Below are positions 2,005-64,000 of a stretch of DNA of 64,000 nt, piece by piece. This DNA is from a virus. Lineage: Duplodnaviria; Caudoviricetes. The position numbers and the translations under genes are program-made. Location: IMG/VR virus record IMGVR_UViG_3300025098_005131; one strand, 5' to 3'. The notes under the pieces are model-generated. The model was given only the letters and a program-made list of their open reading frames with translations. It ran no database searches and had not been told where the DNA came from. Every line of letters starts with the position of its first letter. Position 1 is the stretch's first letter.

Positions 2005-2361
2005 TCAATAAAAGTCTCTAGGTAAGATAGCGTCTAATGACTCTGGGGCACATGTGTTTTCAAGACACCTTCTAAATGTTACAACATCCTTTTCAGACTC
2101 ATCTAACAGAGATTGTGCAGCATTCTCAATTTGTTTTCTTGTCATAGCGTCAGAGATCATCCAAGATGAACACATTTGCGAAAAAATGTCAAGAAATGGA
2201 TGCTCTTCTGCAGAGCTTGCATGATCAAAATCTTTATGTCTTGGGTCATGTGTATCTTGAAATTCTGGCAAGCCAGGATCTGCTGTTATGTCGAGGTCGC
2301 CTATGTTTTCTGCGATAACGCTTCTGATAATGTTTCTTAGTTTACTTTCAGTAATTTTCAT
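2005..2361 (-). CDS. hypothetical protein with MKITExxLRxIIRSVIxE leader (probable virion internal protein)
   Basis: leader nearly identical to 55003..55419; GGAG RBS. Confidence 0.7.
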   Translation of the reverse strand: MKITESKLRNIIRSVIAENIGDLDITADPGLPEFQDTHDPRHKDFDHASSAEEHPFLDIFSQMCSSWMISDAMTRKQIENAAQSLLDESEKDVVTFRRCLENTCAPESLDAILPRDFY

Positions 2362-2412
2362 ACTAACTCCAGACTTTAAATGTATATAGTATATATATAT
2401 ATAAAAATCTTA

Positions 2413-2616
2413 TTATCTTATTAACTTTAGAGAATTAATAGAAACAACATCAATAGAGCCATCGTTAAACATGACTTCGTATCTTTGTGGCATTTCTAGA
2501 TTATCATCATGTATATTGAATGACAATTTGAGCTTTTTAACTACTAAAACTGTATGCCCTCTAAAATCGCAAAGCTTACCAGTTAAACTTTTATTTGTTT
2601 TAAAATTTTCTTTCAT
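2413..2616 (-). CDS. small beta-barrel (SH3/KOW-like) hypothetical protein
   Basis: 67 aa, GHTVLVV...YEVMFNDGSIDVVSINSLKLI pattern. Confidence 0.55.
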   Translation of the reverse strand: MKENFKTNKSLTGKLCDFRGHTVLVVKKLKLSFNIHDDNLEMPQRYEVMFNDGSIDVVSINSLKLIR

Positions 2617-3892
2617 TACCGTGAATAACCTTTATAACTGGAAATCTTAAAGAGTATTCTCCTAATTGGTTTTTAGATTCTTCAAAGTACTGAACTGTAA
2701 TTGTTTTTCCTAGTATATCATGAGGATTTTTAAACAAGAGTTTACGTTGATCTATTGTAAATCCGCTGCCAACTCTAACAGTGTTTCCTTTATGCTCAAT
2801 GGCTACTCCACTCAACATTTCTTCTTCTACTTCTACTCCTTCTTTAATATATCTAAGAGGACCAAAAAAAGTTTCTATCACCTTATATTCAGAATCGTAA
2901 AAAGTTTTCACCTTCAAGATATCATTAGATCTTTTACCTTGATAAGGAACGTTCTTTCTTAACATTAAACCTTCCCACCCCCTTTTAGAGGCTGTTATTG
3001 TTAGATCATCTAGCTCTTTAAAAGAAGATACCGGAGATTGTTCAAGAAAATTAATTAAATTGTTTTGTTTTCCCAGCATTATATTCTGTAATGCGTTTAT
3101 TCTTTGCGTAAAAAGACCAGTTTCTCCGGATCCTTTAGAAAACATTCTGTAAGGAATAAAGTCAAAGATCTGAAATAGACCGTTTTGGATTGTATGATCT
3201 TTTCTTCCGATTTCTTTCATTATACTTTGAAAGTCTTCATTACCTTCTTCGTCTACGATACACATTTCGCCATCATAAACGACGTTTTTAACACCTAGTT
3301 CTTCAATTTCTTTTTCAACCAAGGATAATGTATGAAATTGTTTTCCTGATCTTGCAAAAGATTTTGCTTTTCCTTTGTCGTCCACAATAATAAGGCAGCG
3401 AACACCATCGAGTTTTCTTGATACATACCAAACATTTTTTTCAAAATCAACTTTCTTCTTTGTTTTTTCATCATACTTATTTGCTAATGCAACATTAAAA
3501 GTAGGAATAAGACCCGGTAAAGCTTTATTAATAATTTTAACTGAGGCTCTAATTTTTAGGTTTCTATCTAGGACTAGATATAGTAAGTCCTTAATCTCAG
3601 GATTACAATAGACATACCCGTTAATTTCTTTTATTGCTCTATGTCCTGTAATTAGTCTTTGATTTAAAGACTCAAGCAACTGAAACATGGAGTCAAATTT
3701 GGTATAATCCTGAGTTATGTCAGGCCTTTTTTCTAAAAGCTTTGTTGTAACATAATACTGAAGAAAATTATTGTAAGTGTAATACAGTACTTTTCTCACG
3801 TTTTTACTTGCTGTTAGAATAGTTTTAACTTTATCGTTAGATGAAGTAGACTTATTCATCTCTTCTAGAAAAGCGTTGACTTCATTAATCAT
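2600..3892 (-). CDS. ATP-dependent DNA ligase (T4 gp30-like)
   Basis: motif I RKLDGVRC, III YDGEM, IIIa FQIFD, IV EGLMLR, V LKVK, OB domain VRVGSGF...SLRFPV. Confidence 0.95.
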   Translation of the reverse strand: MINEVNAFLEEMNKSTSSNDKVKTILTASKNVRKVLYYTYNNFLQYYVTTKLLEKRPDITQDYTKFDSMFQLLESLNQRLITGHRAIKEINGYVYCNPEIKDLLYLVLDRNLKIRASVKIINKALPGLIPTFNVALANKYDEKTKKKVDFEKNVWYVSRKLDGVRCLIIVDDKGKAKSFARSGKQFHTLSLVEKEIEELGVKNVVYDGEMCIVDEEGNEDFQSIMKEIGRKDHTIQNGLFQIFDFIPYRMFSKGSGETGLFTQRINALQNIMLGKQNNLINFLEQSPVSSFKELDDLTITASKRGWEGLMLRKNVPYQGKRSNDILKVKTFYDSEYKVIETFFGPLRYIKEGVEVEEEMLSGVAIEHKGNTVRVGSGFTIDQRKLLFKNPHDILGKTITVQYFEESKNQLGEYSLRFPVIKVIHGNERKF

Positions 3893-4085: not shown

Positions 4086-4086
4086 G

Positions 4087-4320: not shown

Positions 4321-4331
4321 TGTCTTACCTA

Positions 4332-4515: not shown

Positions 4516-5802
4516 TTATTTAATGTTAATTACGATGTCTGTTTGATCTGCATCAAACATTAGATTACAGCCAGTAGCTAATACCCAACATCTTTTAAGA
4601 CCTCTAGATATTGAAGGTTTTGGAGCACCACCATCAGTTAAAACAATATAACCATCAAACTTTTTCCTGTTTTTGATTGCATGTTTTGTAACCGATTCAA
4701 AACTTGTTCCGCCTGTGAGTGTTCTTTGCATGTCGGGTCTCGTGTTCTTCTTCCAAAGAAAAGATGATTTTTCATCTACGACATGATCAAACTTATATAC
4801 ATAAAAGTCTGTCCTATTTGATAAATTATCTAACTCTGAATAGAACTTCATTAGCTCTTGGTTTGAAACAGATCCACTTTCGTCAATATAAACAGCAATC
4901 ATAGGCTTGTAAACTTTCTTAAAACCTGCATGAATACCTGGATATTTTCTATTAAGCTTTCTAACTGATGATCTTCTATCATCTCTTCTTGTAAATCCAC
5001 AAAATCTTTTTAGTAATGATTCCCATTTAATTTCGTTAGAAAGCATCTTCATAATTTCTTGACGCATTTCTGAAGATACAGATCCCCAGTTTCTATTATT
5101 AGCTTCTTCTGCAGCCTCTTTTACTATTTCTTTAATTTTACCGGAGATCATTTCTCTTTCAGCTTCAGATATTTCGTCCCAGCCTTCATGATCATCAAAG
5201 CCTAAACTTATCATTTTTTCTTGATCTTCGAGAAAATCCTTGACATCATTATCACTCATTAACTTTTCAAAATAATATTCAGAAGTCTTATTAATAGGCA
5301 TACTTTCGATAAGACTAGAAAGCTTCATAAAAGTTTTTAACTCTTTGTCAGACATCTGTTCTTTTTGATCCGAAGAAATTTTTAAAGCAAAGCCTGGAAT
5401 TAGTCCTCCTTCTGGCAGTTCATTTCTTGGTATGGTAGAATTGATTGCCAAGTCTGTGCCATAGTTCCAAATAATATGAGGATCGCGTCTTCTCTCTGTT
5501 GTATGACCAAACACTAGATGTAGACACTCATGCTTTAGCAATCCACCAATATGTTTCTTAGGGAGACCTGCTAAAAACTCTCTGTTCCACCATAAAGTAA
5601 TTTCTGACTCGTGCGTAGAAACACCAGCAGTTGGTATTGCTATTGACTCGATCTTGTTTAGTGATCTTAAAATCCTGCTATAAAAGGGTTCATTCCAAAG
5701 AAAATCAACTAGATGACTAGTTAGTTCAAAGTTATCAATGTTTTCTTGTGATACCTTGTTTTTCTTTAGTATGCTGTTATTATTTTCTTTTTTGTTTCCC
5801 AT
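4516..5802 (-). CDS. metallopeptidase-like plus vWA domain protein (partner of MoxR AAA+ ATPase)
   Basis: HECLH (HExxH), DLAINS, MIDAS-like DESGS...GGT...VLTDG. Confidence 0.85.
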   Translation of the reverse strand: MGNKKENNNSILKKNKVSQENIDNFELTSHLVDFLWNEPFYSRILRSLNKIESIAIPTAGVSTHESEITLWWNREFLAGLPKKHIGGLLKHECLHLVFGHTTERRRDPHIIWNYGTDLAINSTIPRNELPEGGLIPGFALKISSDQKEQMSDKELKTFMKLSSLIESMPINKTSEYYFEKLMSDNDVKDFLEDQEKMISLGFDDHEGWDEISEAEREMISGKIKEIVKEAAEEANNRNWGSVSSEMRQEIMKMLSNEIKWESLLKRFCGFTRRDDRRSSVRKLNRKYPGIHAGFKKVYKPMIAVYIDESGSVSNQELMKFYSELDNLSNRTDFYVYKFDHVVDEKSSFLWKKNTRPDMQRTLTGGTSFESVTKHAIKNRKKFDGYIVLTDGGAPKPSISRGLKRCWVLATGCNLMFDADQTDIVINIK

Positions 5803-5891: not shown

Positions 5892-6974
5892 TTACTTACC
5901 TAATATGTCTCTATTGTTGTTTACAATCTCAACTACATATTGGCCAACTTCTTTATGGAAGTTCTGAATTGTTTTTATGTTTTTCCCTTTAGTAATACAA
6001 GACCAGAAGTGAATCATCATTTCTTCGGAAATAGACTTACCTAACTTAGCTGCGTTCTTAGCTTGTGAAACTGTCCAGTCATTTGTAGCACCATGTTCAC
6101 CTAATCTTTCAATTAAAGAATTGATTCTATCGTTAGACATTGCTTCAATCTTTTCTTTACATTTTGCAAATGATCTAAGAAGCTCTTCAGGTGTTACTAC
6201 AACTTCGTATTTTTTAACAAAATCAGTAAATTCAATTGCTGCCTCATTACCAATGAAACCAATTGCTGTGTTATAGATGTCAAACGTATCTCTATCTTCC
6301 ATGAGTATAGTATTAGTATGTTTTAAAACCTCGTCAAATCTTGCCCAAGAAGCAGGAGTTGGAAATACCTGTCCTGGTTTGACCTTGTTGAGGTTAACAA
6401 AAAGATGTGATTTTCTTGTCTTAAGAAATTCTAAAATCATTGGGTCAACATTTTTAGATTTAGCCCATGTCATCCAGTCATTTTTTGAAGGTTCAATATC
6501 AATAGTCCAAAATCGTCTTAAAAGAGCTGGGTCCATTTCATTAACATCATATTCATTACCATGATTAACTGCTGCAATAATTCTGGTTTCTGGATGAATG
6601 TTATAAGCATTTCCTTCTTCATCATTACCAAGACAGCGATCCAATACAATTTGGAAAAATGATTGTTGTACAGCAGGTAAACCTCGATTTAATTCATCTA
6701 AAAACAAAACAACTGGTTCTTTGCAGGCTCTAACAAACCATGAAGGCATACAAAACGTCATTACACCTTTTGATTTCATGCCTTCGATATCAGGATAGCC
6801 TTGAACATCACCTTCAGACATAATAGATGCTCGAACATCAATAAGAGGTAGTGAAACGTCTCCAGCAATTTGATTTGCTAGTGCAGACTTTCCAATACCA
6901 GTTCCACCTCGCATAAGAATTGAAATGTGTGGAGGGAGATTAGGAGCTACTTTAAGAAAATTATTAATATTCAA
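5892..6974 (-). CDS. MoxR-like AAA+ ATPase
   Basis: Walker A GGTGIGKS, Walker B LFLDELNR, AAVN, MDPALLRRF, PTPASW. Confidence 0.9.
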   Translation of the reverse strand: MNINNFLKVAPNLPPHISILMRGGTGIGKSALANQIAGDVSLPLIDVRASIMSEGDVQGYPDIEGMKSKGVMTFCMPSWFVRACKEPVVLFLDELNRGLPAVQQSFFQIVLDRCLGNDEEGNAYNIHPETRIIAAVNHGNEYDVNEMDPALLRRFWTIDIEPSKNDWMTWAKSKNVDPMILEFLKTRKSHLFVNLNKVKPGQVFPTPASWARFDEVLKHTNTILMEDRDTFDIYNTAIGFIGNEAAIEFTDFVKKYEVVVTPEELLRSFAKCKEKIEAMSNDRINSLIERLGEHGATNDWTVSQAKNAAKLGKSISEEMMIHFWSCITKGKNIKTIQNFHKEVGQYVVEIVNNNRDILGK

Positions 6975-7397: not shown

Positions 7398-8147
7398 TTA
7401 TTTAGACCCCACTCGAGCTACTTCGTTAAAACCTTCTTTCTTAAGATCTAAGAAGAAAGTCCAACCAGCTCCGCCAAAACGATTCTTAATCGTTTCTAGA
7501 ACACGTAAACCTTTAAAGTCTTCATCTTTCTTTTCAATAGAAAGGTGTAACATTGCGTCAACCATATGCTTTAACTTTTGCGAGCCAGCCATATTACCAC
7601 TTTTATTAACCTGTCCGATACAGATAACATTAATATAATGCTCTTTAGCATAGTCAGTAAGCATTTGAAGAGACCTTACAGCAGACTGACTGTTTGTATT
7701 TTCTTCTCCATACTTACCATCATTAAGTGTTTGTAAAGAGTCAACAATGAGAAAAAACGGTTTGTTTCCTGACTTCTTTCGAAGCATATCACATTGTTTA
7801 AGAAGCCTTGGAACATATGATTCTTGCCCGGCAATAAATCCGCTTGATAGTTCTAGTCTTTCACACGTAAGCTTTACTTGATACAAGCTTTCTTCAGCAG
7901 TATTAAATAAACATGTATATCCTTGAGATGTTAAAGCGTTAGCAAGTGTAAGCATGAGTGTAGTTTTACCAGCGCCTGGTTCTCCGGTAAACAACGAAAT
8001 CGTAGAAGGAGTAAAGCCTTCACCCCCAAAAGCTGCGTCAATGTAGTCAACGCCACACGGATTTCTCTCTCTTAGTTTCCTAGGAACGCTAATGTCGAGA
8101 ATGTTTGTGCCAAAAACAATACCGTCGTTTTTTACTTTAAGTTTCAT
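7398..8147 (-). CDS. radA: RadA/Sms-like recombination ATPase, core domain only
   Basis: GEPGAGKTTL, AEESLYQV, VDSLQTL, QVNKSGNMAGSQKLKHMVDA, KNRFG; no Zn finger or Lon-like domain. Confidence 0.85.
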   Translation of the reverse strand: MKLKVKNDGIVFGTNILDISVPRKLRERNPCGVDYIDAAFGGEGFTPSTISLFTGEPGAGKTTLMLTLANALTSQGYTCLFNTAEESLYQVKLTCERLELSSGFIAGQESYVPRLLKQCDMLRKKSGNKPFFLIVDSLQTLNDGKYGEENTNSQSAVRSLQMLTDYAKEHYINVICIGQVNKSGNMAGSQKLKHMVDAMLHLSIEKKDEDFKGLRVLETIKNRFGGAGWTFFLDLKKEGFNEVARVGSK

Positions 8148-8230: not shown

Positions 8231-8569
8231 TTAAATCTGGCGTATATATCTACCATCAAACTGCTTAACTGCACCTTTAACTAGCACAAAGAAGCAGTTT
8301 TTCTCAACTCTTCTTGAAAAATATTCAAAATCAGAAACAATTAAACCTATGGACTTTTCAGTGCTGAAGTCTACTTCAACTAACTGATTAGGCTTAAACG
8401 AATATCTGATTATTTTTTTTACTTTTGCAAAATTTTCATCCTTAACAACTCTTTGCGTAGATACTTGCCTTGTTTGCTTCGACGCTTGCCTAGCAGCTTT
8501 TAAACTGTTCGGGTTAGTGTTTTGCATCTTTGATTTAAGCTCTTTAAGCTGTTTTCTAGATAATGACAT
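8231..8569 (-). CDS. hypothetical protein, basic N-terminus plus SH3/KOW-like C-terminus
   Basis: FKPNQLVEV...IGLIV...FFVLVKGAVKQFDGRYIRQI. Confidence 0.6.
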   Translation of the reverse strand: MSLSRKQLKELKSKMQNTNPNSLKAARQASKQTRQVSTQRVVKDENFAKVKKIIRYSFKPNQLVEVDFSTEKSIGLIVSDFEYFSRRVEKNCFFVLVKGAVKQFDGRYIRQI

Positions 8570-8590: not shown

Positions 8591-8619
8591 ATTATATAAA
8601 CTTTTTAAAACAATTACAC
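8591..8619 (-). promoter_or_regulatory. phage promoter GTGTAA-N17-TATAAT
   Basis: upstream of 8569. Confidence 0.7.
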
Positions 8620-9084
8620 ACGCTTAGTATATATTATTCCTGCATTAATTTCAGAACCGTACACACTATTTAAACCGTTTCTTACATGAGACATAATACA
8701 ATCAGACATATAATCGTCAAGATCTTCTTTACCGTAAGTAAAGTTTAAGTTCTCAACAAGCTCTTTACCGTAATTCCATGCCAAAATTTCTTCATTCATT
8801 AAGTGAACAAATCCTTTTTTAGATCTAACTGTCCAAGGCATGTTCTTGTTAAAACATATTACACCTTTACGTTTAATTTGATTATCAATAATCATGTGAC
8901 CTGCTTCATGCAAAAGAGTAAAAAATCTTTCTCGATATTTTAGGTTTTGATTAATTCTAATCATGTTAAGTTGAGGATACCAGGCATCTTCTTCGTAAGG
9001 CTTTTGGATCACATTAACAAAGTAATTGTCCTTAATGTATTTAGTTAAAATATAAAATTGATTTTTGTATGTTTGAGGGTTCAT
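8614..9084 (-). CDS. zincin-like metallopeptidase (ImmA/IrrE-like HExxH)
   Basis: FTLLHEAGH followed by EEILAW. Confidence 0.65.
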   Translation of the reverse strand: MNPQTYKNQFYILTKYIKDNYFVNVIQKPYEEDAWYPQLNMIRINQNLKYRERFFTLLHEAGHMIIDNQIKRKGVICFNKNMPWTVRSKKGFVHLMNEEILAWNYGKELVENLNFTYGKEDLDDYMSDCIMSHVRNGLNSVYGSEINAGIIYTKRV

Positions 9085-9144: not shown

Positions 9145-9651
9145 CTAAATGTTTTTATATTTCTGGAATATTCTTCTAATCTTTTTGGTATGACTATTGA
9201 CTCCTTTAACATATCTTGAAGTATATTTGTTCTTCTTAGAACATTTGTTTGAATTATTGTAATAACAAAGTGCTTTGTTAAGTGGCTTAAACTTTTTTTT
9301 ATAATACTTTAAAGCTTTGACGCCGTGATGAAATAAATCACATTTTCGTAGTAAGCCATCTCGTTTAACAGCATTTATATTTCCTTTATTGTTGGGACAC
9401 CAAAACTCATATTTAATTTGTAGTGGTCCTACACATTTAAATTTATTAGGTTTTGATTGCTCAGTCATTCTAGACTCTTCCCAAGCAACGCCAAGTGTTA
9501 AAGGTATATCTAAATTATTATTTTTTGCTTCTTCAATTAGAATAGAACATACTGCAAGGTTTTCTTCTCGCGGTTTGTTGTCAGATAATTTATGATAAAC
9601 CTCTTCGCAAAAACTATATTGAACAGATAAAGCAATTAAAAGTTTAATCAA
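9145..9651 (-). CDS. lytic transglycosylase (SLT/lysozyme-like)
   Basis: LGVAWEESR (catalytic Glu), VGPLQI, ALCYYN, YVKGV; N-terminal signal-like segment. Confidence 0.75.
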   Translation of the reverse strand: MIKLLIALSVQYSFCEEVYHKLSDNKPREENLAVCSILIEEAKNNNLDIPLTLGVAWEESRMTEQSKPNKFKCVGPLQIKYEFWCPNNKGNINAVKRDGLLRKCDLFHHGVKALKYYKKKFKPLNKALCYYNNSNKCSKKNKYTSRYVKGVNSHTKKIRRIFQKYKNI

Positions 9652-9841
9652 AATGTTTTTGTACGTCTCCTGATCTATGTGTTTCTATTGTATCATCTTG
9701 AAATCTAATTCTATAAAAAACTTTAGCCTCAGTTGTTCCCCCAACGGTTAGTTGGTTATTTCCTTCAGTAAGGATTTCTTCTACTACTCCGATTTTGTTT
9801 ATTCTTTGCCAGTGATAAACTTTGTCGCCTCTTTTTATCAT
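9644..9841 (-). CDS. small SH3/KOW-like protein
   Basis: IKRGDKVYH...IGVVEEI...YRIRFQDDTIETH. Confidence 0.6.
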   Translation of the reverse strand: MIKRGDKVYHWQRINKIGVVEEILTEGNNQLTVGGTTEAKVFYRIRFQDDTIETHRSGDVQKHFD

Positions 9842-9900: not shown

Positions 9901-10407
9901 TTAAACAAATACGCCACAGTTAACTAATGATTGCAAAACATCTAACAAAGCCTTAGCTGATGATTCTCTGCATGTAGAACCTGAGCAATCCATCATAGGC
10001 TTAAGAAACTTATCAATATCATCTGGAGTGCCCATTAAGTGTTGAGAACAGCTATCATAAGAATCTTTACATGGAACTGTATGGATTGATTGTGCTCTTG
10101 CTTTATTATAATGATCTAGAGACTCTGGATGTTCACAGTGAAATTTAATATGATCTACATATTCTTGTGTAGTTACTTGACCATTATTATTTAAGTCAAA
10201 GTGTGAATATAAGTCTTCTGGCGTAATATGACCATCACCATCCGGGTCTAAGTCGTGATGACTATTATTATGTGGTTCGCTAACAATTTTTACATCATAT
10301 GACTCCAAGGGGTTAGCCATACAATTACAATTAGGTTTTCCACACATCAAACATACATCTAAATTTGCTCTATTTAAAAACTCTCTAATTAATTTTCTTT
10401 CACTCAT
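9901..10407 (-). CDS. EF-hand calcium-binding protein, Cys-rich
   Basis: DPDGDGHITPED and DLNNNGQVTTQE loops; leader MSERKLIREFL. Confidence 0.7.
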   Translation of the reverse strand: MSERKLIREFLNRANLDVCLMCGKPNCNCMANPLESYDVKIVSEPHNNSHHDLDPDGDGHITPEDLYSHFDLNNNGQVTTQEYVDHIKFHCEHPESLDHYNKARAQSIHTVPCKDSYDSCSQHLMGTPDDIDKFLKPMMDCSGSTCRESSAKALLDVLQSLVNCGVFV

Positions 10408-18536: not shown

Positions 18537-18821
18537 ATGTTACCGTTTAGAGAAAAGATAATTGAAGAAAACGAAACATATATACTTGTTCAGCGTGATT
18601 TCATGTCGACACTCATTGAAGAAGACCTAAACTGGCACATGGACGAAGAAGATCGTGATGTATTTGTTGTTGAAGGCGACGGTTGGTATTTACAAATAGA
18701 AAATGAGATACCCCAGTTGATGCAGAAAGAATCTATTTTCAAAATACCAAAAGAAACATGGCATCGAATAATTAATAAAAACGGCACAAATCTAATAATT
18801 AATGTGAGAAAATACAAATGA
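18537..18821 (+). CDS. cupin-fold protein
   Basis: WHMDEEDR...GDGWYLQ...IFKIPKETWHRI. Confidence 0.7.
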   Translation: MLPFREKIIEENETYILVQRDFMSTLIEEDLNWHMDEEDRDVFVVEGDGWYLQIENEIPQLMQKESIFKIPKETWHRIINKNGTNLIINVRKYK

Positions 18822-20796: not shown

Positions 20797-20846
20797 ACTA
20801 TTCTGGAATATTTTATAAGGGCGAAAATTGATTAGGTTGCATTGAA

Positions 20847-21248: not shown

Positions 21249-21284
21249 TTATTTTATATAAAAGAAGACTTTTGAGTAGCAACA

Positions 21285-21581: not shown

Positions 21582-21591
21582 GAAAATATAG

Positions 21592-55002: not shown

Positions 55003-55419
55003 ATGAAAATTACAGAAAGACGTTTACGTTCAATTATTAGAAGTGTTATTAGAGAGTCACGTGCTGACAAGATGTTAGATTATCACGTAGGTCATGGTGA
55101 TCATCCAGACTATGATCCTGCAGTAGGTCAAGATCGTTCTGAGACGTTGTTTGATATAAGCGGCGATCGCCCTACTGAGCCTTATTCTCCTCCTATGAAA
55201 GTATCAAAACAACTTATGGATTCTGCAAGAGCAAACTCATATCTTCAAAAGTATAGTCCATTAAAATCAAGAATACAAGGAAGTGTAAGTTGTAAACGTT
55301 CTAGCGAGCGTTTTCCTGATGGCTGGAGCTGTAGTGTTAAACTGTCTGAAGACGGGCGCATTGTGCCTGTAATTATTCACATGAGCTACGACGGTGACAT
55401 AGAAGTACAATACATGTAA
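55003..55419 (+). CDS. hypothetical protein with MKITERRLRSIIRSVIRE leader
   Basis: leader shared with 2005..2361; AGGAG RBS. Confidence 0.7.
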   Translation: MKITERRLRSIIRSVIRESRADKMLDYHVGHGDHPDYDPAVGQDRSETLFDISGDRPTEPYSPPMKVSKQLMDSARANSYLQKYSPLKSRIQGSVSCKRSSERFPDGWSCSVKLSEDGRIVPVIIHMSYDGDIEVQYM

Positions 55420-58400
55420 TTAATCAAAAGCATTAATCTTTTTAAGTTTAGCAAGTGTAGATGACATACCCCAACCTGCATCGTTCTTTACATCAGCAAG
55501 CCATGTACTAAACTCAACACCATCTTCAACACTACCCCAAACCCTTAACCAGCCACTACGATTGTCTGAGTCAACGCATTTCCAACGCATAAACGCTTTA
55601 CCGTTTTTTGTTGTTTTATGAATAACTTCTGTAACAGTAAACCAGCCAATTCCTCTTTCACCTTGAGGTATATCAAATACACTCTTGATTTGCTTGTCGT
55701 TTAACTTTTTAATTAGACTAGGTGGAAACAGGAGGTCGTCACTTGCATCGTTGCTGAGATCAAAATAATTCCTAATTTTTTCTGATCTATTCCAGTCAGA
55801 CACAACACGATACTTTGTCAATAAATCTTCAACAATTGGAACAATTTCTTCTTCGTTCTTTTTTGCTCTTTTTACTGCAGTTTTTGTCATTCCCCAATAA
55901 CCTTTCTTGAGTGTAGTATAGTTATCAAGTATTAAATCATGGAGTTGCTTGTGATTATCCAGTTCATCGTTTTTAAACTCGTCAAGAGACTTAAATGCTT
56001 CCATCTTCGCTAGCGATGAAAAAGCTGTTTTGTTTAACTTGGAATGTTTCCATACTCCTTCTGCATCGTAAAATAGAGTATTTAAATTTTTGTATGGTCT
56101 ATTCGCAAATACTTCTTCAACAGCTTTATCTCCTACTCCTTTAAGCGATGTTAGCGGAGGAACAAAAGCTTTTAATACGTCTGAATATTCCCATTCTGCT
56201 TCAGAGTGGTTTATATCTATTGCTGCAATTTCGTATCCAAATGATTTAATCTCTGATATGGCTTTTGACATGCCTTTGGGGTTACCATTTTCAGACTGTA
56301 ATATTGCAGCCAACCACTCAGTCTCGTGATGTGTATGCAGCCAAGCCGCGTAATATGAACCAATAGCATAAGCAACTGCGTGAGACTTGTTAAAGCCATA
56401 AACAGCAAAATTTTCTATATCTGCCCATAACTTAGAAGATACCGACTCCGGGACATCGTTTAATTCTTTAGCACCTTTAATAAACTTTTCTCTAGCAATT
56501 GCTTTTTCTGAGCCTTTAGAATGCAGTGTATCTAGTGACTTCTTAACCAGCGTCTTTCTAAGCTTATCAGCCTCACCTGGATCAAATCCACTTAACTCTT
56601 GTGCAAGTAACATAAACTGCTCTTGAAAAACTACGTAGTTAAACGTAGGCCCTAATATCTTTTCAATAATAGGGTGATCATACTTAATGTCAGATGCATT
56701 TCTTTTTGCTTTAACATACTTCTTATGAACATTTGCTTTAAGCGGACCAGGTCTGTATATAGCTGTTAAGGCTGCAAGTTCTTCAATAGAATCAGGTTCT
56801 GCCTCTTTGGCAAAGTTTCTAGCACCAGGAGCTGTAAATTGGAATATGCCACAAAACTTTCCGTCTTTATATACATGTTCCCAAACTTTAGGGTCATCTT
56901 GTTTGACAAACCTACAGTTTAAATGTTTATCAAAGAATGCTCTTGCATCTGTAAATGTAGGATTATTATTTCCTTGCTTCTTGAGAATTCTATAAATGCA
57001 GTTTTCTACGTCTTTAAGCAATGTCAATCCTAAGAAGTCAAACTTAAGAAAGCCGTTATCTTCAAGATTTCTAAAGTTCATACCTTCTGTCCAAGGAGTT
57101 TGTAGTTCGCCGCGAACACCAACAATCGGCATTGACTCAGCAAGAGAATCAGCATCAGCTATTATTACACCACCTGCGTGTCTACCAATAGCTCTATTTT
57201 GCATAAACAACGTTTCAACATGCTCGGCAACTTCCGGATAGGTTGTCATAAATTCATTATACTCAGGAGAGTATTTCATACAGTCTTCATGCTTAAGGAC
57301 GAATACAGATTTTTCTTGATTTTTATCCATCGCTTTTTGCATAACTTGATCTTGAAGAGGACCAGTTACTTTGTTTACTTCATCAAAAGGAATATCATAA
57401 AACTTTGCAATATCTTTAATAAGCGATTTAAGCTTAAGTGTATTAAAGTTTGATACTGGAATAACTGCATCGTCGCCGTATAATTCTTTTGCTGCATTAA
57501 TAAGTTCATCTCTGTCGCCAGCGTCTGTATCAATGTCAGGCCACGAAACTCTGTGTCTTCCTAAAAATCTACTCCAAAGTAAGTTATAAGGAATAGGATC
57601 AAGTTGAGTAATACCTAGCAAGTAATTAACTAAAGAACCTCCGCCTGAGCCACGGGCCGGTCCAAATAGAGTCTTTGTTTCAGCTTTTTTAAAGATCTCA
57701 TACATTGTAATGAAGTAAGCTTCGTGCCCAAGATACTTAATGTCAGACAGCTCATATTTAGCTCTATCTACATATTCTTTGTTTGTATGCAAACCTTCAC
57801 TAATCAAAGCATTCTTGACTAAGTCTGATAGATGTTTAAACGGCGTCTTATCAGGTACTGATATTGTTGGAAGCTTTGCGCTTACATCTATCCATGTATC
57901 TTCGAAATCATTCCAAACAATGTCATGTGTTCTTTCTATCGACTCTTTAACTAGCTGCTCGTTTCCTTTATAGAAATCGTGTTCTTTATATCCTTCTAAG
58001 AATTCATCCCACATTTGTTGCGCATTCTTAGGATATAGCTCACATTTAAGATCTTCAAAAGCAGGCAGTGTCATGCCATCCTTCTTACCTAACCATCCAA
58101 GCTTCTTATATAATTCTCTCGCTTGCCACTTATCATTACTTGGGTAGTGAGAATCTGCTGTTGAGATAAGAGGAATACCCGTCAACTTATGATGTTCTAT
58201 GAGGTAATCATTAACAACATGTTGTTTATTAAGCTTGTTGAATTGTAGTTCTAATTTAAAGTTTTCAATACCAACAGCATCTGTAAACCTGTCTGATAGA
58301 CTTAAAAGATCTTTTTGGATTTCGTCGCGTGACTTATCATGAGCTACGCCTCGAAGTATTCTATTGCTAAAAATGCCGCCTAAACATGCAGTATTAACAT

Positions 58401-58995
58401 GCAAACCTTCACCGTGTTCTTTAAGCATTTTAAAGTCAATACGTGGGTATCGATAGAAACCATCCTTATACGACTTCTTTACAAGGGTAAACAGATTATT
58501 AAGACCTTTTCTATTTCTTGCTGTAACAACTAAGTGATATCGACGTTTCCATTCATCCTTAAGAATATCAATCTTCTTGGACTCATCTTCATCCTCGATT
58601 ACAAGACCACCACTTTCATCATCAGCGTCAATAACAATTTTTTCTTTGCTTTTTCTTTCAGCAGCAGCAGCAGTTTTTGCATCTTTAATTGCTTGCCTGT
58701 GTGATGCATAGTCATCTGTCCATTGATCTAACGAAGGAACAAAATAAAATTCTACACCATAAATCTGTCTAAACTTTCGACCTGCTTTTTGCATTTTAAC
58801 TGCATATGAATGTGCATGTGCAAGACCGTTACCGTTACCGTGGTCTGTTAGCGCCCAAGCATCCATGCCTTGTGATTCAGAAAGAACAAAGTCTATATGA
58901 TCTGATGGGTATCCTAGTCCATCGAAAGTGCTGAACGTTGAGTGTGAATGAAGAGAAACAAATCTGTCTGGTGGTGTTATTAAATCAATAGACAA
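55420..58995 (-). CDS. dnaE: DNA polymerase III alpha subunit (family C)
   Basis: PHP HSHSTFS.FDG, TDHGN, DSHY; RGSGGGS, PDIDTD, KFDFLGL, FQEQ, GFNKSHA. Confidence 0.95.
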   Translation of the reverse strand: MSIDLITPPDRFVSLHSHSTFSTFDGLGYPSDHIDFVLSESQGMDAWALTDHGNGNGLAHAHSYAVKMQKAGRKFRQIYGVEFYFVPSLDQWTDDYASHRQAIKDAKTAAAAERKSKEKIVIDADDESGGLVIEDEDESKKIDILKDEWKRRYHLVVTARNRKGLNNLFTLVKKSYKDGFYRYPRIDFKMLKEHGEGLHVNTACLGGIFSNRILRGVAHDKSRDEIQKDLLSLSDRFTDAVGIENFKLELQFNKLNKQHVVNDYLIEHHKLTGIPLISTADSHYPSNDKWQARELYKKLGWLGKKDGMTLPAFEDLKCELYPKNAQQMWDEFLEGYKEHDFYKGNEQLVKESIERTHDIVWNDFEDTWIDVSAKLPTISVPDKTPFKHLSDLVKNALISEGLHTNKEYVDRAKYELSDIKYLGHEAYFITMYEIFKKAETKTLFGPARGSGGGSLVNYLLGITQLDPIPYNLLWSRFLGRHRVSWPDIDTDAGDRDELINAAKELYGDDAVIPVSNFNTLKLKSLIKDIAKFYDIPFDEVNKVTGPLQDQVMQKAMDKNQEKSVFVLKHEDCMKYSPEYNEFMTTYPEVAEHVETLFMQNRAIGRHAGGVIIADADSLAESMPIVGVRGELQTPWTEGMNFRNLEDNGFLKFDFLGLTLLKDVENCIYRILKKQGNNNPTFTDARAFFDKHLNCRFVKQDDPKVWEHVYKDGKFCGIFQFTAPGARNFAKEAEPDSIEELAALTAIYRPGPLKANVHKKYVKAKRNASDIKYDHPIIEKILGPTFNYVVFQEQFMLLAQELSGFDPGEADKLRKTLVKKSLDTLHSKGSEKAIAREKFIKGAKELNDVPESVSSKLWADIENFAVYGFNKSHAVAYAIGSYYAAWLHTHHETEWLAAILQSENGNPKGMSKAISEIKSFGYEIAAIDINHSEAEWEYSDVLKAFVPPLTSLKGVGDKAVEEVFANRPYKNLNTLFYDAEGVWKHSKLNKTAFSSLAKMEAFKSLDEFKNDELDNHKQLHDLILDNYTTLKKGYWGMTKTAVKRAKKNEEEIVPIVEDLLTKYRVVSDWNRSEKIRNYFDLSNDASDDLLFPPSLIKKLNDKQIKSVFDIPQGERGIGWFTVTEVIHKTTKNGKAFMRWKCVDSDNRSGWLRVWGSVEDGVEFSTWLADVKNDAGWGMSSTLAKLKKINAFD

Positions 58996-59059: not shown

Positions 59060-60253
59060 TTACTTGATTACTTCTTTACCATCGATTAGCCTAAAAGTTC
59101 TTTCTTTGTTATACTTCATGACTTTACCGTAAGACATGCGCATGCACCCAATACAACTCACTATATTATTTGGGCTTTGTCCATCTTCACTGTAACGATT
59201 AAAAAACTCAATTAGAGCTTCTAAAGATTTAAATCCTCCGCCGAGACCCCAGTAACACTCACCAGAAAGCCACATTCGAAGTCGATTAGGCATCCATCTA
59301 TTTTGAATACACAGTTTTATTTCTTTGTCAAGTAAATTAATTCCTGTGTTTCCATTCATAAACTGGTCTTTTGTAAAAACTGCGTCAAACTCGTTATCGC
59401 GGAGGTTATTGAAAGACTTTTCATCAAGTAGCTTTTTAGCTGTCACTTTTATGTCGTCAAAAAGACCAATGCTTTTTTCTCGACACTTTCTTATGCTAAT
59501 CTCTCTAAATGCTAACTGTCTAAGCAAAGGAACAGTTGGAAAGTCTTTTTCAATGTAATGAGGAGATACTGCAAGTGTAAGATACGTTATAACTCTTGCA
59601 TCTATTAATCCATGATGAAAAAACTTTGAAAGCTTAGTGCTACCTTCGCGCTCATTTCTTGTTATATGATACGTTATTAGCTTTTCTTTAAATCGTCTAT
59701 AGACGTTGACGACTTCTTGTCTTATTTCTTCAGCATTCGCTTTATTAACAATATGCACGCTGCCTATGTTTCCAAAGTCATTAACTTTTCTATAGGCACA
59801 GTAAATATCGTTATTTGAAAGTTTGTTTTTTGCCCAATAAATCCATCTGCTCTTTGCTGTCATTTTTGTGCATGAGTCTATAAAAGAGTCAGAGTCAACT
59901 TCTTCGACGTTTAAATTATTAAATACAAGTTGATTAGAAAACAAAGGTTTGTCGTAAAAGACTTTTTCAACATTTTCTTTTTTACAGAATTCTTCGATAA
60001 CACTTACAGCTGAAGGTGTCTTTATTATTTTAAGACTTAAGTCATACTTCTTTTTTATTTGGCATGCAAAGTCATCTAAGACTTTGTAGTAGTATTCATT
60101 GTTGCTCATTTCATAAAAACTTTTAAACTTTTCGCTTAAGTAATAATTTGAAACATGAACAACACACACATTACTATATGAATTTAGCGCCTTATAAAAT
60201 AAAAGGCTGTTTGTTCTAAAGCTATGATCTATAATAATTAGACACTTCGACAT
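59060..60253 (-). CDS. divergent DNA photolyase/cryptochrome family protein
   Basis: GSTKLSKFFHHG, RQLAFRE, GNTG..LLD, MPNRLRM, SEDGQSPNN. Confidence 0.75.
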   Translation of the reverse strand: MSKCLIIIDHSFRTNSLLFYKALNSYSNVCVVHVSNYYLSEKFKSFYEMSNNEYYYKVLDDFACQIKKKYDLSLKIIKTPSAVSVIEEFCKKENVEKVFYDKPLFSNQLVFNNLNVEEVDSDSFIDSCTKMTAKSRWIYWAKNKLSNNDIYCAYRKVNDFGNIGSVHIVNKANAEEIRQEVVNVYRRFKEKLITYHITRNEREGSTKLSKFFHHGLIDARVITYLTLAVSPHYIEKDFPTVPLLRQLAFREISIRKCREKSIGLFDDIKVTAKKLLDEKSFNNLRDNEFDAVFTKDQFMNGNTGINLLDKEIKLCIQNRWMPNRLRMWLSGECYWGLGGGFKSLEALIEFFNRYSEDGQSPNNIVSCIGCMRMSYGKVMKYNKERTFRLIDGKEVIK

Positions 60254-60330: not shown

Positions 60331-63096
60331 ATGACAAAGTATAGTTTAAAAGAAAATTTTCTTATTAAAGAAAATAAAGGAATAGAGTTAAGAGGAAACA
60401 AGCTTTCAGTTTATCACTTAACAGGTGCAGAAAAGTTTAAAAATTACTCGTCTTATGTAAAAGATACAAAAAAGCCTTTTAAACCTAGTAAACCAAGAAA
60501 AGTCAAAGATCGTGCTAGAAACATTATTAATAGAGTTACTTATGACAAAGGCAGGAGTGGTGCAACCACGCAAAGCAAAAGTGACATAGAGTTTCAAGGA
60601 ATTACAGAACTACTATCAGACCCGTATACAGTAGGAACTGGGTTTACACCTGGCCACGGAGATATGTACGGCCCAGGATTATATACATGTTACGACTTTA
60701 ACCCTTCTATTGTTCATTTGTATGGGGATATATGTTTTAAATTTGAAGTTGACATTAGCAATTATATTATATTTTTTGAAGATCTGGCTAAACAAATTCA
60801 CGGTGATAAATGGAAGCTAGAAGACCAGATAGAAAAGTTGTTTGATGAAAAGTTTTCTTCTCTTGCAAAAGACGAATTATTTGCGAAAACAAAAGAAGAC
60901 TTAAAACAATATTGCACTCCATTAACACAACGAATAAATGGGACTAGTTATTTAGTGGACGATCCTAACAATAAAAATCTAACTTCATCTTCTGCTTTTT
61001 CTTTTACTAAATACGTCATGGGTAATTATACACCTAAGTATTTAACTTCTGTCATAGACGGTATTATATTTAGAGGTGACCATGACGGACCTGTTTGCGT
61101 TGTTTACAATCCGCAAAGAAAAGCAAAAGTTGTAGAATTAGGTAGAGTTGTAGGTAAAGAAGTAGAATGGCATTCAAACGTTGCGAGTTTTTTTCCAGAC
61201 CAAAAGCTAGCATTAGACATAGATTTTGAAACTCTAAATGATATTGCACAAGAAAACGATGTCGACGAAGAAGACTTTAAACAAGATCAGCTACAAAAAG
61301 TAGAAGGACTTTTGCCTACACTTTATTGGTGCAATGAAATCAATAAAGTTGCAGACTCTCCTGATCTAACATACGAAATGATACAGAAGGTTTATGACTT
61401 AGTTGTTAATGACAACTTAAAAATAGAAACAATGTTTATCAATCACGTTTTGTTTGCAAATACAAAAAGTAAAGTAAATAAAGCTGTTGGCACAGGTGGT
61501 AATCCATTACAAGCCTTTAAAGTTGACCAAAATAACATAGAAAATATTCACTTAGAATGTTTAAACTTAATAACTGAACTTTGTAAAAAAATAAACTATT
61601 TCACAGACAATGACGTTAATTATTATTTTCCAAGATTTTTAGATGTAATAACTTCTCCAATAAACAAGCAAAGTGTTACAAAAAAAGATTTCGAAAGGTT
61701 TATTGATATTTACATAGAAAATGCAGACAAAGTCAGCTATGGTATGTTAGTTTTTCGTAACATACAATATGGCGGCCACTTATCTGTAAATGATATGTTA
61801 TTTTCTAGAAAGTCTCTAAATAAGTTAAACAGTCTTGACAATAGTCGTTTAATGATGAACGTAGAATTGTATCAAGTTTCTCAATTAGCAAGATATCGAA
61901 GTCGCTTAGATAATCTTACTGGCCAAGATATACTTGATGTTTTAATAAAAATGCTTACTTTTTACTTTCCGACAAAAAACAAAGACTATAAAACAGCAAT
62001 TTGCAAGCTTCCTTGGGAAAGAAAATACTTTACAGAATTACCTGAAATTCAGCAGTTTCTGTTTGAAGAGCTTGATACAATTTCTTCAGCACAAATTGCA
62101 GGATCTATTGACACTATGACTCGTGGTGTTTTTACCTTATTCCAAAATGAAATAATAAGCTGTGTAAGAATTGATCTTTTAAATAAAATAATTGATATAA
62201 TTTTTGAAGACATCGATAGATTAGGCACAAAAGCTAGACAGAATGTTGAACAAAATTTATTAGACATTAGAGATGAAAACATTAAAAAACAGATTACAAA
62301 CCAGAAATACCACCAATTTGTTAATCAAAAGCTTGACACTGCAAACAATTGGAGTCCTTTAATTGATGAACTCAAGCAATCACAAACGCCTGCAGAAACC
62401 CGATTAATACTTAAAAATAATAGAAAAGTTGAAACAAAGAACAAAGAATACGCTGAAGCATTGGTTTCAGGCATAATTTCAGGTGATATTCCTCCAGATA
62501 TTAGCAATCTCCAAATGTATTTAAGATGGATTAGTTATGAAATAAAGCTACCATTTCAGACACTCATCTCTTTATGTGAAGCTTGTTTTAGTTATATTGA
62601 TATCAAACCAAACAGTAAAAAACATTTTAATGATCTTTTAATGCTTTTGTTAAGATCTTCGAAAGGTGTAGAACAATATCTTGAGACTATTGCTCTGTTA
62701 AAAACAATACCAGAAGCTCACATGAATAGTTTAGAACTAGGTAGAATACATTATACAGAAGGTGACAACGATTTATTTGAACAGGTTGCAAATAATTCTA
62801 GTCTGCTATCATTGTTTTTTAGTGGGATGAGTCAGCGGCAAGTTCTTAAAATTGCTAAGGGCATACATCGAAGCGTCAATTATGCAGTAACACTTGCACC
62901 TGGCGCCAATTTATATTTACCTGACGAAGGTATTGAAATCGTAATAGATTATATAGAAAAAATGTTTGGCAAAGGATCTATACTTAAATTAATTAGTGAG
63001 ACTAGACATCTACTTCTACAAAGACAAAACTCGCAAGATCCGCAAGAATCAAATGAGACACTAATTAAAAGATACATTTCTTTAATTCTGTCTTAA
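60331..63096 (+). CDS. PARP-like ADP-ribosyltransferase domain protein, 921 aa; paralog of 15765..18527
   Basis: YHLT, GFTPGHGDMYGPGLYT, IDGIIF, GPVCVVYNP; leader SLKENFLIKE. Confidence 0.68.
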   Translation: MTKYSLKENFLIKENKGIELRGNKLSVYHLTGAEKFKNYSSYVKDTKKPFKPSKPRKVKDRARNIINRVTYDKGRSGATTQSKSDIEFQGITELLSDPYTVGTGFTPGHGDMYGPGLYTCYDFNPSIVHLYGDICFKFEVDISNYIIFFEDLAKQIHGDKWKLEDQIEKLFDEKFSSLAKDELFAKTKEDLKQYCTPLTQRINGTSYLVDDPNNKNLTSSSAFSFTKYVMGNYTPKYLTSVIDGIIFRGDHDGPVCVVYNPQRKAKVVELGRVVGKEVEWHSNVASFFPDQKLALDIDFETLNDIAQENDVDEEDFKQDQLQKVEGLLPTLYWCNEINKVADSPDLTYEMIQKVYDLVVNDNLKIETMFINHVLFANTKSKVNKAVGTGGNPLQAFKVDQNNIENIHLECLNLITELCKKINYFTDNDVNYYFPRFLDVITSPINKQSVTKKDFERFIDIYIENADKVSYGMLVFRNIQYGGHLSVNDMLFSRKSLNKLNSLDNSRLMMNVELYQVSQLARYRSRLDNLTGQDILDVLIKMLTFYFPTKNKDYKTAICKLPWERKYFTELPEIQQFLFEELDTISSAQIAGSIDTMTRGVFTLFQNEIISCVRIDLLNKIIDIIFEDIDRLGTKARQNVEQNLLDIRDENIKKQITNQKYHQFVNQKLDTANNWSPLIDELKQSQTPAETRLILKNNRKVETKNKEYAEALVSGIISGDIPPDISNLQMYLRWISYEIKLPFQTLISLCEACFSYIDIKPNSKKHFNDLLMLLLRSSKGVEQYLETIALLKTIPEAHMNSLELGRIHYTEGDNDLFEQVANNSSLLSLFFSGMSQRQVLKIAKGIHRSVNYAVTLAPGANLYLPDEGIEIVIDYIEKMFGKGSILKLISETRHLLLQRQNSQDPQESNETLIKRYISLILS

Positions 63097-63143
63097 AATC
63101 GAGATATGATTAAAATATTTATTAAAAACAAATAAGGTTTGAA

Positions 63144-64000
63144 ATGAAAATTAGACTACTTAAAAAATATATTAAAGAATCACTTGGAAGAGAAATTATG
63201 TCTTCTCCAAAAAGGTTGTCTTTACCAAATACAGCTGCAGACCAGCAAAGATTTTTAACAAAAATAGAAACAATAGACAAAACAAAGCTTTCTTTAGAAG
63301 AAATACTAGAAGAACTTATTGTTGCAGCTGGTCCGACTACTTATATACGATATCAAAATAAGTTTGGAGACGTAGAAGTCCCTCCGATGGAAGTTAGCCC
63401 GCAAGTTAGATTTCAAACGCCTCACGGAATATATGGTTATCCCTTAAACCAAAACAACTTACAGTCAATAATTACAAGAGGACAGCCAACTAGTGCAGGC
63501 TTTGCGACAAACTATGATTATTTCCATGTTTACAAAATTGATACGTCAAAAACAGCTAACGTAAAAAAAGATAAAGAAAGTCTAAGTGTAATACAAGGCA
63601 AATACACTAACAAGGAAAAAGTGATAGATGACATAGCTGAATGTATAAGGCTTTCTACAAGTTTAATTAAAGACAAAGAAAAAGAAGATGCTATTTTGCA
63701 AGATTATAAAGATCTAGAAAAAGACATTAAAAATCTTAAAAGTAACGTCTCATATGATAATTATTACTTCAACTCAATCTTTACAAAATATAGTCATCTA
63801 GTCGGTGAGGTTGACGAAGAAAAGATCGATGAAAAACAAAGTTTAATTAACATATATAAATTTGAAATTGCTGACGCAATATATGCGCATATGAGAAGTC
63901 ATTTTGAAAAATTTGGTTATTATAATAAAAACGTTAGCAAACAATATTCATTTTTTGTTATTTTAAAAGATGCTATAGGAAGTATATCTTCTGCTATTGC
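63144..64000 (+). CDS. partial ORF (runs off the window), TPHGxYxYP-domain paralog of 19036..20796
   Basis: MKIRLLKKYIKES...EVSPQVRFQTPHGIYGYPL...GFATNYDYFH. Confidence 0.7.
   Translation, partial: MKIRLLKKYIKESLGREIMSSPKRLSLPNTAADQQRFLTKIETIDKTKLSLEEILEELIVAAGPTTYIRYQNKFGDVEVPPMEVSPQVRFQTPHGIYGYPLNQNNLQSIITRGQPTSAGFATNYDYFHVYKIDTSKTANVKKDKESLSVIQGKYTNKEKVIDDIAECIRLSTSLIKDKEKEDAILQDYKDLEKDIKNLKSNVSYDNYYFNSIFTKYSHLVGEVDEEKIDEKQSLINIYKFEIADAIYAHMRSHFEKFGYYNKNVSKQYSFFVILKDAIGSISSAI

Follow-up and report, generated by a model that had tools for sequence, protein, structure and literature searches.

The window analysed here is the whole of a 64,000-nucleotide stretch of viral DNA (Duplodnaviria; Caudoviricetes; IMG/VR record IMGVR_UViG_3300025098_005131), with a G+C content of 31-32% and 73 curated open reading frames (ORFs), about a third of which (~26 of 73) start with an N-terminal leader, 9-25 residues long, whose final residues are hydrophobic-hydrophobic-x-Glu. 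In nearly all of these leaders the last residue (P1) is Glu and the residue two places before it (P3) is Leu, Ile or Phe. Genes that carry no such leader, and are here called untagged, encode an ATP-dependent DNA ligase, PurA, PurB, an enzyme of the IMPDH/GMP-reductase fold (GuaC/IMPDH-type), GroEL, thymidine kinase, dCMP deaminase, a sigma-70-like factor, an AAA ATPase, FEN and DnaE, the last named from precomputed Pfam hits and the other enzymes confirmed by Pfam. The Pfam domains of these untagged enzymes begin at residue 2-23, and no conserved leader precedes them.

The source of the window is an uncultured marine T4-related myovirus of ~250 kb. An identical copy of a 921-amino-acid (aa) protein of the window is encoded on a 253,096-bp JGI marine contig, and comparisons were made with three relatives from IMG/VR, G001 (107 kb), G007 (153 kb) and G006 (239,550 bp), of which G006 has direct terminal repeats and is rated 100% complete. 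Proteins shared between G001 and the window are 28-97% identical, with the core enzymes at 88-97%. Genes for a tail sheath, a tube and a baseplate hub are present in the relatives, and on this basis the lineage was identified as a myovirus of about 250 kb. Megablast and tblastn searches of GenBank with three window sequences found no close phage relative, and GenBank phage matches to the window DnaE reach 28% identity at most.

The leader motif is strongly concentrated at protein starts. Of the 73 ORFs, 22 have a match to the expression [LI][LI]xE among their first 20 residues, against 2.9 expected from internal 20-residue windows of the same proteins (binomial p about 5e-14), and 1000 shuffles of the N-termini gave a mean of 5.7 motif-bearing ORFs and a maximum of 14. 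An iteratively built, 12-column position-specific scoring matrix (PSSM) converged on a long form of the leader, LLExYI[KR]xxLxE, whose matches per position are 55-166 times more frequent at N-termini than in protein interiors. The leaders are also unevenly distributed among functions, being present on none of the 13 replication, nucleotide-metabolism and related enzymes as against 26 of the 60 other ORFs (Fisher p = 0.003). These figures agree with an earlier note on this DNA, which had put the number of leader-bearing proteins at about 25 (26 were counted), had set the ligase, PurA, PurB, DnaE, thymidine kinase and GroEL outside the set, and had suggested profiling the leader, which proved to be enriched at N-termini. 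All eight leaders that the note quoted were found at ORF starts, each with an ATG; MKNSIRWLLTE is a genuine leader, but it opens the ORF at 15765 and not, as the note had it, the ORF ending at 10407, which starts MSERKLIRE.

Graded by conservation in orthologues, 12 leaders are strong and about 14 are moderate (a short form that is conserved) or weak (Table 1). Five sequence classes were distinguished, class A (LLExYIKxxLxE), class B (MKITExxLRxIIRSVIxE), class C (LLxEsWRsFLxE), class D (MxKYSLKExF..hxE) and class E (..LLFE or LLTE), all of which finish in hydrophobic-hydrophobic-x-Glu. Matches that lay inside a conserved fold or were not conserved were rejected, namely 13634-14695, inside the IMPDH fold, 2600-3892, the ligase, whose G006 orthologue starts later, and 9644-9841. 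Six further ORFs (18537-18821, 31133-31324, 32651-32815, 34474-34686, 35508-35969 and 37934-38203) were left unassigned.

Table 1. Leader-bearing ORFs of the window. A slash marks the putative cut after the leader; grades are by conservation in orthologues; "PSSM" (with score where available), "Pfam" and "orthologues" name the evidence for a row; pI, isoelectric point.
Position (strand)	Product	Class	Leader	Grade	Evidence and remarks
2005-2361 (-)	118-aa acidic protein	B	MKITE..IRSVIAE/N (18 aa)	strong	PSSM 20.1; identical leader in G001 orthologue
9901-10407 (-)	168-aa EF-hand protein		MSERKLIRE/F	strong	Pfam EF-hand_1
15765-18527 (+)	920-aa protein, ADP-ribosyltransferase-like domain after leader		MKNSIRWLLTE/S	moderate	
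18818-19039 (+)	73-aa basic protein, body pI 10.8		..LILEIILSE/G	strong	PSSM; orthologues
19036-20796 (+)	586-aa protein	A	MILLEKYIKTFLKE/A	strong	PSSM 23.9; orthologues; body paralogous to that of 63144 protein
20847-21248 (+)	133-aa very basic protein, pI 11.0	A	..ILEEYIKEALLIE/S	strong	PSSM
21285-21581 (+)	98-aa very basic protein, pI 10.7	A	..LEEFIRETLLDE/A	strong	PSSM; orthologues
21592-21963 (+)	123-aa very basic protein, pI 11.4, DUF5824	A	..LEEFIRESLLDE/A	strong	PSSM; orthologues
21960-22616 (+)	218-aa basic protein		MNNLLIEHKKILSE/G	moderate	orthologues
22618-23109 (-)	163-aa protein	A	MNNKILENYIKE/K	strong	PSSM 19.4; orthologues
23540-26485 (+)	981-aa protein	D	MKYSLKNEYKSLLKE/E	moderate	start conserved in 4 relatives
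26469-27110 (-)	213-aa cytidylyltransferase-like enzyme (HxGH)	C	..LLVESWRSFLKE/E	strong	Pfam; orthologues
27118-28071 (-)	317-aa protein		MKRKKLVNLLFE/E	moderate	scaffold-type C-terminal tail ..RWNKLAGLIKG
36359-37927 (-)	522-aa acidic protein		..KVVLKE/Y	weak	G006 orthologue ..NNLLLKE/D
39164-39811 (-)	215-aa acidic protein		..SLYQILNE/S	moderate	ILSE or ILNE in orthologues with 36-46% identical bodies
40336-40680 (-)	114-aa protein		..MTNYLYE/D	moderate	YLNE in two orthologues
40688-43804 (-)	1038-aa protein		..AQKILNE/K	weak	Glu kept in G001, lost in G006
43809-44210 (-)	133-aa protein	E	..VAKDILFE/N	moderate	LFE kept in orthologues 29-33% identical overall
44836-45633 (-)	265-aa very acidic protein		..SLRVLYE/D, ending at residue 25	moderate	orthologues ILFE, LILE at the same place
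45643-46371 (-)	242-aa Fe/Mn superoxide dismutase (SOD), N-terminal extension of ~37 aa		..EKTLRE/N	weak	Pfam; Glu kept in G001, not in G006
46368-46898 (-)	176-aa protein		..MIRLLREE/Y	moderate	orthologues
46913-51526 (-)	1537-aa protein	E	MTLSIAELLFE/D	moderate	
51991-52566 (+)	191-aa HAD phosphatase (HAD_SAK_1)	A	MSILLLEDYIKNILKE/N	strong	Pfam; PSSM 24.4; orthologues
55003-55419 (+)	138-aa protein	B	MKITE..IRSVIRE/S	strong	PSSM 21.6; orthologues
60331-63096 (+)	921-aa paralogue of 15765 protein, leader before ADP-ribosyltransferase-like domain	D	M.KYSLKENFLIKE/N	moderate	
63144-63998 (+)	start of a 731-aa protein that runs past the window end	A	MKIRLLKKYIKESLGRE/I	strong	PSSM 21.3; orthologues

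The tandem genes at 18818-22616 include five small leader-bearing proteins with lysine runs, whose predicted mature parts have pI values of 10-11.4, and this array resembles the T4 internal proteins in basic character and locus layout. Of the enzymes that the earlier note had named as cargo, Pfam confirmed three, a nucleotidyltransferase, a phosphatase (HAD) and a SOD (Fe/Mn type).

Conservation and exchange of the leaders

Once the leaders are removed, the 26 leader-bearing proteins fall into 24 BLAST families. Among 55 orthologue pairs the leader is more conserved than the 40 residues that follow it (identity 0.69 vs 0.56, p = 3e-4), and the difference widens in distant pairs (0.61 vs 0.43). 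Orthologues from G001, G006 and another five contigs retain the leaders even when body identity is down to ~30%, as in the proteins encoded at 43809-44210, 44836-45633, 39164-39811 and 46913-51526, and the leader of the EF-hand protein is 75-100% identical in five orthologues as against 15-62% for its next 40 residues. Within class A, 38% of the codon pairs that specify the same residue use different codons, and the two class B leaders, which stand before unrelated bodies and are all that these two proteins have in common, likewise show many synonymous differences, so the likeness sits in the peptide and not in repeated or copied DNA.

The leaders have also been exchanged in front of one conserved domain. 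The 920-aa and 921-aa paralogues share an N-terminal domain, here called YHLT, for which 66 homologues were collected, and at least four leader types precede it (MxKYSLKENFLIKE, MKNSIRWLLTE, MNTKQLLNEWRSFLNE and MRKLLKEHYKHLLNE). In an alignment of 26 homologues with different leaders, the terminal Glu of the leader (E14) forms an invariant column. These comparisons support a leader that is selected at the level of the peptide and portable between unrelated proteins, and the swaps before the YHLT domain, together with the number of families among the leader-bearing proteins, agree with the earlier note, which had called the signal portable.

The same note had listed ADP-ribosyltransferases among the cargo. 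Three motifs, YHLT, GLYTCY and FE.DIS, are invariant among homologues of the domain in the 15765 and 60331 proteins and would correspond to the H, Y and E motifs of such enzymes, which lends tentative support to an ADP-ribosyltransferase-like domain; the fold matches are weak, and Pfam and PHROGs returned no match for the 920-aa and 921-aa proteins, nor for the other large leader-bearing proteins. An AlphaFold model built from the 26-sequence alignment reached a mean confidence (pLDDT) of 77, as against 44 for an earlier, unusable model from seven sequences. In the model of the 60331 protein, residues 1-16, the leader, have pLDDT below 50 and lie outside the fold, and the domain begins near residue 20. 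The top VIA structure matches are mostly PARP, ParT, MbcT and diphtheria-toxin folds, with Z scores of at most 5.2, the best Foldseek match to the domain model is 6kyf (E 0.037), which we take to be the anti-CRISPR protein AcrIF11, and the atlas lead for an ADP-ribosyltransferase-like domain scores 0.77. A chain of the cyanophage A4 pre-ejectosome (9k3a_B) is also among the weak structural matches of these giants.

Head module and protease of the relatives

In G006 the head module runs in the order large terminase, Portal_T4 (PF07230), a 277-aa protein, Peptidase_S77, small core proteins, a 513-aa scaffold-like protein and Gp23 (PF07068). This order recurs in contigs of the G001 lineage, one of which has a precomputed PF03420 match (locus L128) next to Gp23. 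The Peptidase_S77 of G006, encoded at 122607-123209, belongs to the T4 gp21 family (PF03420, 99.9 bits, E 1.7e-28) and matches the T4 gp21 structure 5JBL (E 1.4e-16), so that a gp21-like protease, which the earlier note had named as something to locate, is present in G006 between the portal and gp23 capsid genes and in the G001 lineage next to Gp23. The note had listed, as findings that would count against it, a motif not enriched over non-virion proteins and the lack of a Glu-specific head protease; neither was borne out, the protease being present in the lineage. The His (ELDHP) and Ser (ISSRG) of the G006 protease align with Ala at positions 104 and 159 of the 5JBL chain, which by our own count are native positions 85 and 140, as the chain has 19 extra residues; we infer that the crystallised chain is an inactive double mutant, and on this alignment the G006 protease keeps the two catalytic residues of gp21, His and Ser. 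The closest cultured homologues of the protease are in Microcystis phage Mel-JY01 (59% identity), Flavobacterium phage immuto (47%) and cyanomyoviruses (41-45%).

The protease carries the motif itself, with LITE at residues 6-9, the same residues at which T4 gp21 has LLIE, and T4 gp21 strips nine N-terminal residues from itself on activation (PMC9958956). Core proteins of 142, 96 and 134 aa beside the protease also carry leader sites (e.g., ..LKSIVKECLVELLAE/G and ..LIMETWRRFLRE/G), the scaffold holds several such sites, and KLTE and TLLE are candidates for the propeptide site of the capsid protein. Within the structural block of G006 the N-terminal [LI][LI]xE matches sit at the head end, and none was found in 77200-112914, the stretch with the tail genes. 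A predicted complex of residues 10-200 of the G006 protease with residues 1-40 as leader peptide scored 0.01 in a run made without controls and is evidence in neither direction. The relatives also encode a second, ClpP-like protease of 200 aa (L017:12516-13118 in G001; 65460-66065 in G006) that matches the PHROG "head maturation protease" (E 1.9e-22), has genes of nucleotide metabolism as neighbours, at a distance from the head module, and by synteny would fall ~13 kb past the window end; its identity in G006 and G007 is 77-82%.

Two leader-bearing proteins of the window have further features in common with prohead parts. A C-terminal tail, W-x-x-L-A-G/F-(I/L)-K, is common to the 317-aa protein of the window, where it falls in the last 11 codons, and to two proteins of the relatives, the scaffold-like protein and a small one of the head core (G006 118327-119868 and 121786-122202; G007 69085-70560 and 72546-72974). 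It occurs three times in the whole proteome of G006, and no protein of the relatives other than these two ends in it. The tail of the 317-aa protein therefore connects a gene of the window with the prohead core independently of the leader, and it may be a second, shell-binding tag. The 1537-aa protein repeats the LLFE of its own leader at residues 1105-1108 and 1497-1500, each time as S-L-T-x-LLFE, and accounts for three of the four LLFE words that occur across the window proteome, which suggests internal processing; the two internal words are probable protease sites, and the protein may be a polyprotein. In phage immuto (NC_055915), the product of 125626-126867, which bears the annotation "DNA polymerase phi-like protein", has the C-terminus ..RWQKLAGIIK, similar to the scaffolds described here, and is encoded shortly downstream of the prohead protease, with two small ORFs between; it looks like a scaffolding protein that has been misnamed.

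Upstream regions were compared as well. A box of the form TAATATATA or ATAAAGA-like lies upstream of the sheath, tube, scaffold and capsid genes of the relatives and also of a few leader-bearing genes, and the region before 46368-46898, with the box TATAAATAAAG, resembles that before the capsid gene. TATAAT boxes, several with GTGTAA ~17 bases upstream, occur with a strong AAAGGA ribosome site mainly before untagged metabolic and replication genes, and TATAAT-type regions precede 4516-5802, 5892-6974, 7398-8147, 8231-8569, 8614-9084, 14753-15673, 54006-54896, 55420-58995 and 59060-60253. Many leader-bearing genes have tight operons or TAAGG-type sites instead. Among the untagged genes, a DUF2201 metallopeptidase/VWA protein (4516-5802, minus strand) adjoins a MoxR-type AAA ATPase (5892-6974, minus strand), each with an early-type promoter, and the sigma-70-like protein (31617-32661, minus strand) has Pfam regions 1.2, 2 and 3 without region 4.

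Comparison with known phages

The same count of N-terminal [LI][LI]xE, observed against expected from internal windows, was made in cultured T4-like phages and in the relatives. Values were 17 vs 6.9 in T4, 14 vs 6.2 in immuto, 14 vs 7.0 in P-SSM2 and 15 vs 8.1 in Mel-JY01, as against 34 vs 10.5 in G006, 19 vs 3.9 in G001, 18 vs 4.6 in G007 and 21-22 vs 2.9 in the window. A looser expression, [LIVMF][LI]xE, recovered IPII and IPIII (both MKTYQEFIAE), gp68, gp21, gp22, gp24 and Alt from T4, and since these are known gp21 substrates the method finds true ones. The excess over chance is about 24 in G006 and about 10 in T4; that of the lineage is roughly two to three times T4's, and its leaders are longer and more varied.

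Several features of the system are T4-like. Short leaders ending in L/I-x-Glu stand on small basic proteins and on a putative ADP-ribosyltransferase-type enzyme, the leader-bearing genes lie outside the head cluster, and in the relatives Peptidase_S77 lies beside T4-type portal, scaffold and gp23 genes and carries the motif at its own residues 6-9. Unlike T4, the leaders here are mostly 11-19 residues long (~10 in T4) and form at least five sequence classes, the proteins that bear them number ~26 in 64 kb and are known from sequence alone, and the candidate cargo includes a SOD, a HAD phosphatase, a nucleotidyltransferase, an EF-hand protein and giants of 900-1500 residues. In T4, the capsid-targeting sequences or propeptides of IPI, IPII, IPIII and Alt are removed by gp21 (Mullaney and Black 1996, as cited in PMC9958956 and PMC5694885).

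Leaders closer to those of T4 were found in the cultured cyanophage P-SSM2 (NC_006883), where the proteins encoded at 100269-100529, 158143-159417 and 169737-171458 start with MKSF(K/S)QFL(E/T)E or MKSLSQFIIE, close to MKTYQEFIAE of T4. These three are candidates for capsid targeting, and one leader of the MKSFSQFLTE type stands on the annotated cytidyltransferase PSSM2_194, to which the HxGH enzyme of the window has weak homology. Taken together, the T4 and P-SSM2 controls thus indicate that the leader principle is general to T4-related phages. Virion proteomes of cyanophages, e.g., that of S-CREM2, often contain cytidyltransferases and kinases, and such non-structural virion enzymes may be carried cargo or purification carry-over (PMC10665884). 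A leader on such an enzyme would favour cargo over carry-over. These cyanophages resemble the present case in having a cytidylyltransferase-type enzyme with an L-x-E leader in a T4-like marine phage; the P-SSM2 leaders are, however, T4-like and few, and PMC10665884 draws no tie between virion detection and a leader. Our literature search found no paper on T4-related phages from the sea that connects leaders with virion cargo.

Two other groups of phages offer partial parallels. The heads of phiKZ, 201phi2-1 and SPN3US are processed by a gp21-related protease (gp175 or gp245; PMC5694885, PMC7411985), are large, and hold many internal or ejection proteins (SPN3US has about 50), a number of which are cut after Glu by this T4-related protease. 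The phiKZ-type proteases prefer a small P3 residue (S/A/G-x-E, A-x-E), and many of their propeptides exceed 100 residues (PMC5694885), whereas P3 here is Leu, Ile or Phe, the leaders are 9-25 residues long, and the capsid, portal and scaffold match T4 Pfam families. The polyvalent proteins and virion-packaged phage ADP-ribosyltransferases described by Iyer et al. 2017 (PMC5512222) are large, as are the 920-aa and 921-aa proteins, and are predicted to be delivered with the DNA; they have an H-Y-E-type ADP-ribosyltransferase-like domain, as the window pair may too. In those systems the signal is a MuF-type or portal-associated domain, whereas a cleavable N-terminal leader is proposed here, and the giants of the window differ from that set in having weak fold matches and no match in Pfam or PHROGs. 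T4 Alt is itself a packaged ADP-ribosyltransferase (PMC5512222), which the leader-bearing pair would parallel.

Proposed head loading and its alternatives

Because the leaders end in L/I-x-E, the cutting site of the relatives' T4-type protease, the proteins that bear them are most likely loaded into the capsid. The mechanism is already known from T4, and what the window would add is an expanded, multi-class and exchangeable set of leaders for head loading, a reading to which we assign a probability of about 0.7. A newly made protein would be built into the prohead's scaffolding core by way of its leader, as T4's internal proteins and also Alt are; the gp21-type serine protease would cut after the Glu of the leader; and the mature protein would stay in the head with the DNA and could enter the host at infection. 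That the proteins are for injection, as the earlier note had it, is an extrapolation from T4 Alt and IPI.

An assembly role would account for part of the pattern. In T4, gp22, gp67 and gp68 are degraded and expelled before DNA packaging, and the leaders could likewise be gp21-type propeptides of prohead core or scaffold parts that serve assembly only and are lost before the DNA enters. The head-core proteins beside the protease bear the same leaders, the 317-aa protein has a scaffold-type tail, the 1537-aa protein repeats the motif at internal positions, and in T4 the core proteins are cleaved to small peptides (PMC9958956), all of which fits. Many of the leader-bearing proteins, among them the SOD, the HAD phosphatase, the nucleotidyltransferase and the ADP-ribosyltransferase-like proteins, are, however, folded enzymes that have one site at the N-terminus and few inside, like the Alt and internal proteins that T4 retains, and a role in assembly gives no reason for putting leaders on enzymes, so that we regard this explanation as unlikely.

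Alternatively, the amphipathic N-terminal helix could be a docking or regulatory element shared by these proteins and unrelated to the capsid, with an incidental Glu at its end, such as a membrane-association helix, a tag for the phage GroEL or the ClpP-like protease, or an oligomerisation helix, and the leader-bearing genes do lie among metabolic and replication genes and not in the head module, the lineage does encode GroEL and a ClpP-like protease outside that module, and a late-promoter link to the leader-bearing genes was not demonstrated by word search or by a matrix derived by expectation maximisation (EM). Against this, the one feature invariant across classes is the L/I-x-E end, which is the specificity of gp21; the motif is found on the N-terminus of the protease itself, at the position of T4 self-cleavage, and on head-core proteins, while tail and housekeeping proteins are without it; and the ip and alt genes of T4 likewise lie outside the head cluster. 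We consider a docking element quite unlikely. Chance, in the form of K/I/L/E-rich N-termini in an AT-rich genome or of wrongly chosen start codons, is extremely improbable and was already disfavoured. With 31% G+C, [LI].E does occur in 22% of internal 20-residue windows, and a few matches, such as the IMPDH-fold reductase and the ligase, proved false; yet the shuffled N-termini stayed well short of the observed count, the motif is kept in orthologues with strongly diverged bodies, the long form is concentrated at N-termini, and control T4-like genomes of similar G+C show a far smaller excess.

Several observations weigh against head loading. The excess over chance in the window is about 18-19, so that some few of the less well supported leaders may be false, and a few orthologues have lost the terminal Glu (in G006, those of the SOD and of the 1038-aa protein). 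The leaders (LLExYI[KR]xxLxE and the other classes) have no sequence likeness to MKTYQEFIAE of T4, which lowers the case for homology of the leader itself and not that for likeness of mechanism. Leader-bearing genes sit among early-type metabolic genes, and in this AT-rich DNA neither the word search nor the EM-derived matrix for a late-promoter box separated them from untagged genes. The protease was located in relatives, whose proteins are 28-97% identical to those of the window, and cleavage, packaging and injection are all read across from T4 by homology (PMC9958956, PMC5694885).

A more elaborate version of head loading, which we hold to be doubtful, would make the leaders a modular address code, with at least five classes (LLExYIKxxLxE, MKITExxLRxIIRxVIxE, LLxEWRxFLxE, MxKYSLKExF..hxE and ..LLFE) that are exchanged among homologous cargo and sort at least 30 proteins, or at least 10% of the proteome, by place in the head, copy number or order of ejection, and with the W..LAG(I/L)K tail marking shell binders.

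If the leaders act as they do in T4, the virion cargo of uncultured, cosmopolitan marine giant phages becomes readable from sequence, and here it would comprise basic DNA-associated proteins, a pair of ADP-ribosyltransferase-like proteins, a nucleotidyltransferase, a phosphatase, a SOD and several giants. The leader-bearing set supplies concrete candidates for the first factors of host takeover and anti-defence, and the leader together with a gp21-family protease offers a search key for other T4-related phages. The natural leader swaps mark the exact boundaries of the putative packaging tag and could help in loading foreign proteins into the capsids of non-model phages. As the mechanism is established for T4, the value of the finding lies in its scale and generality and not in a new principle.

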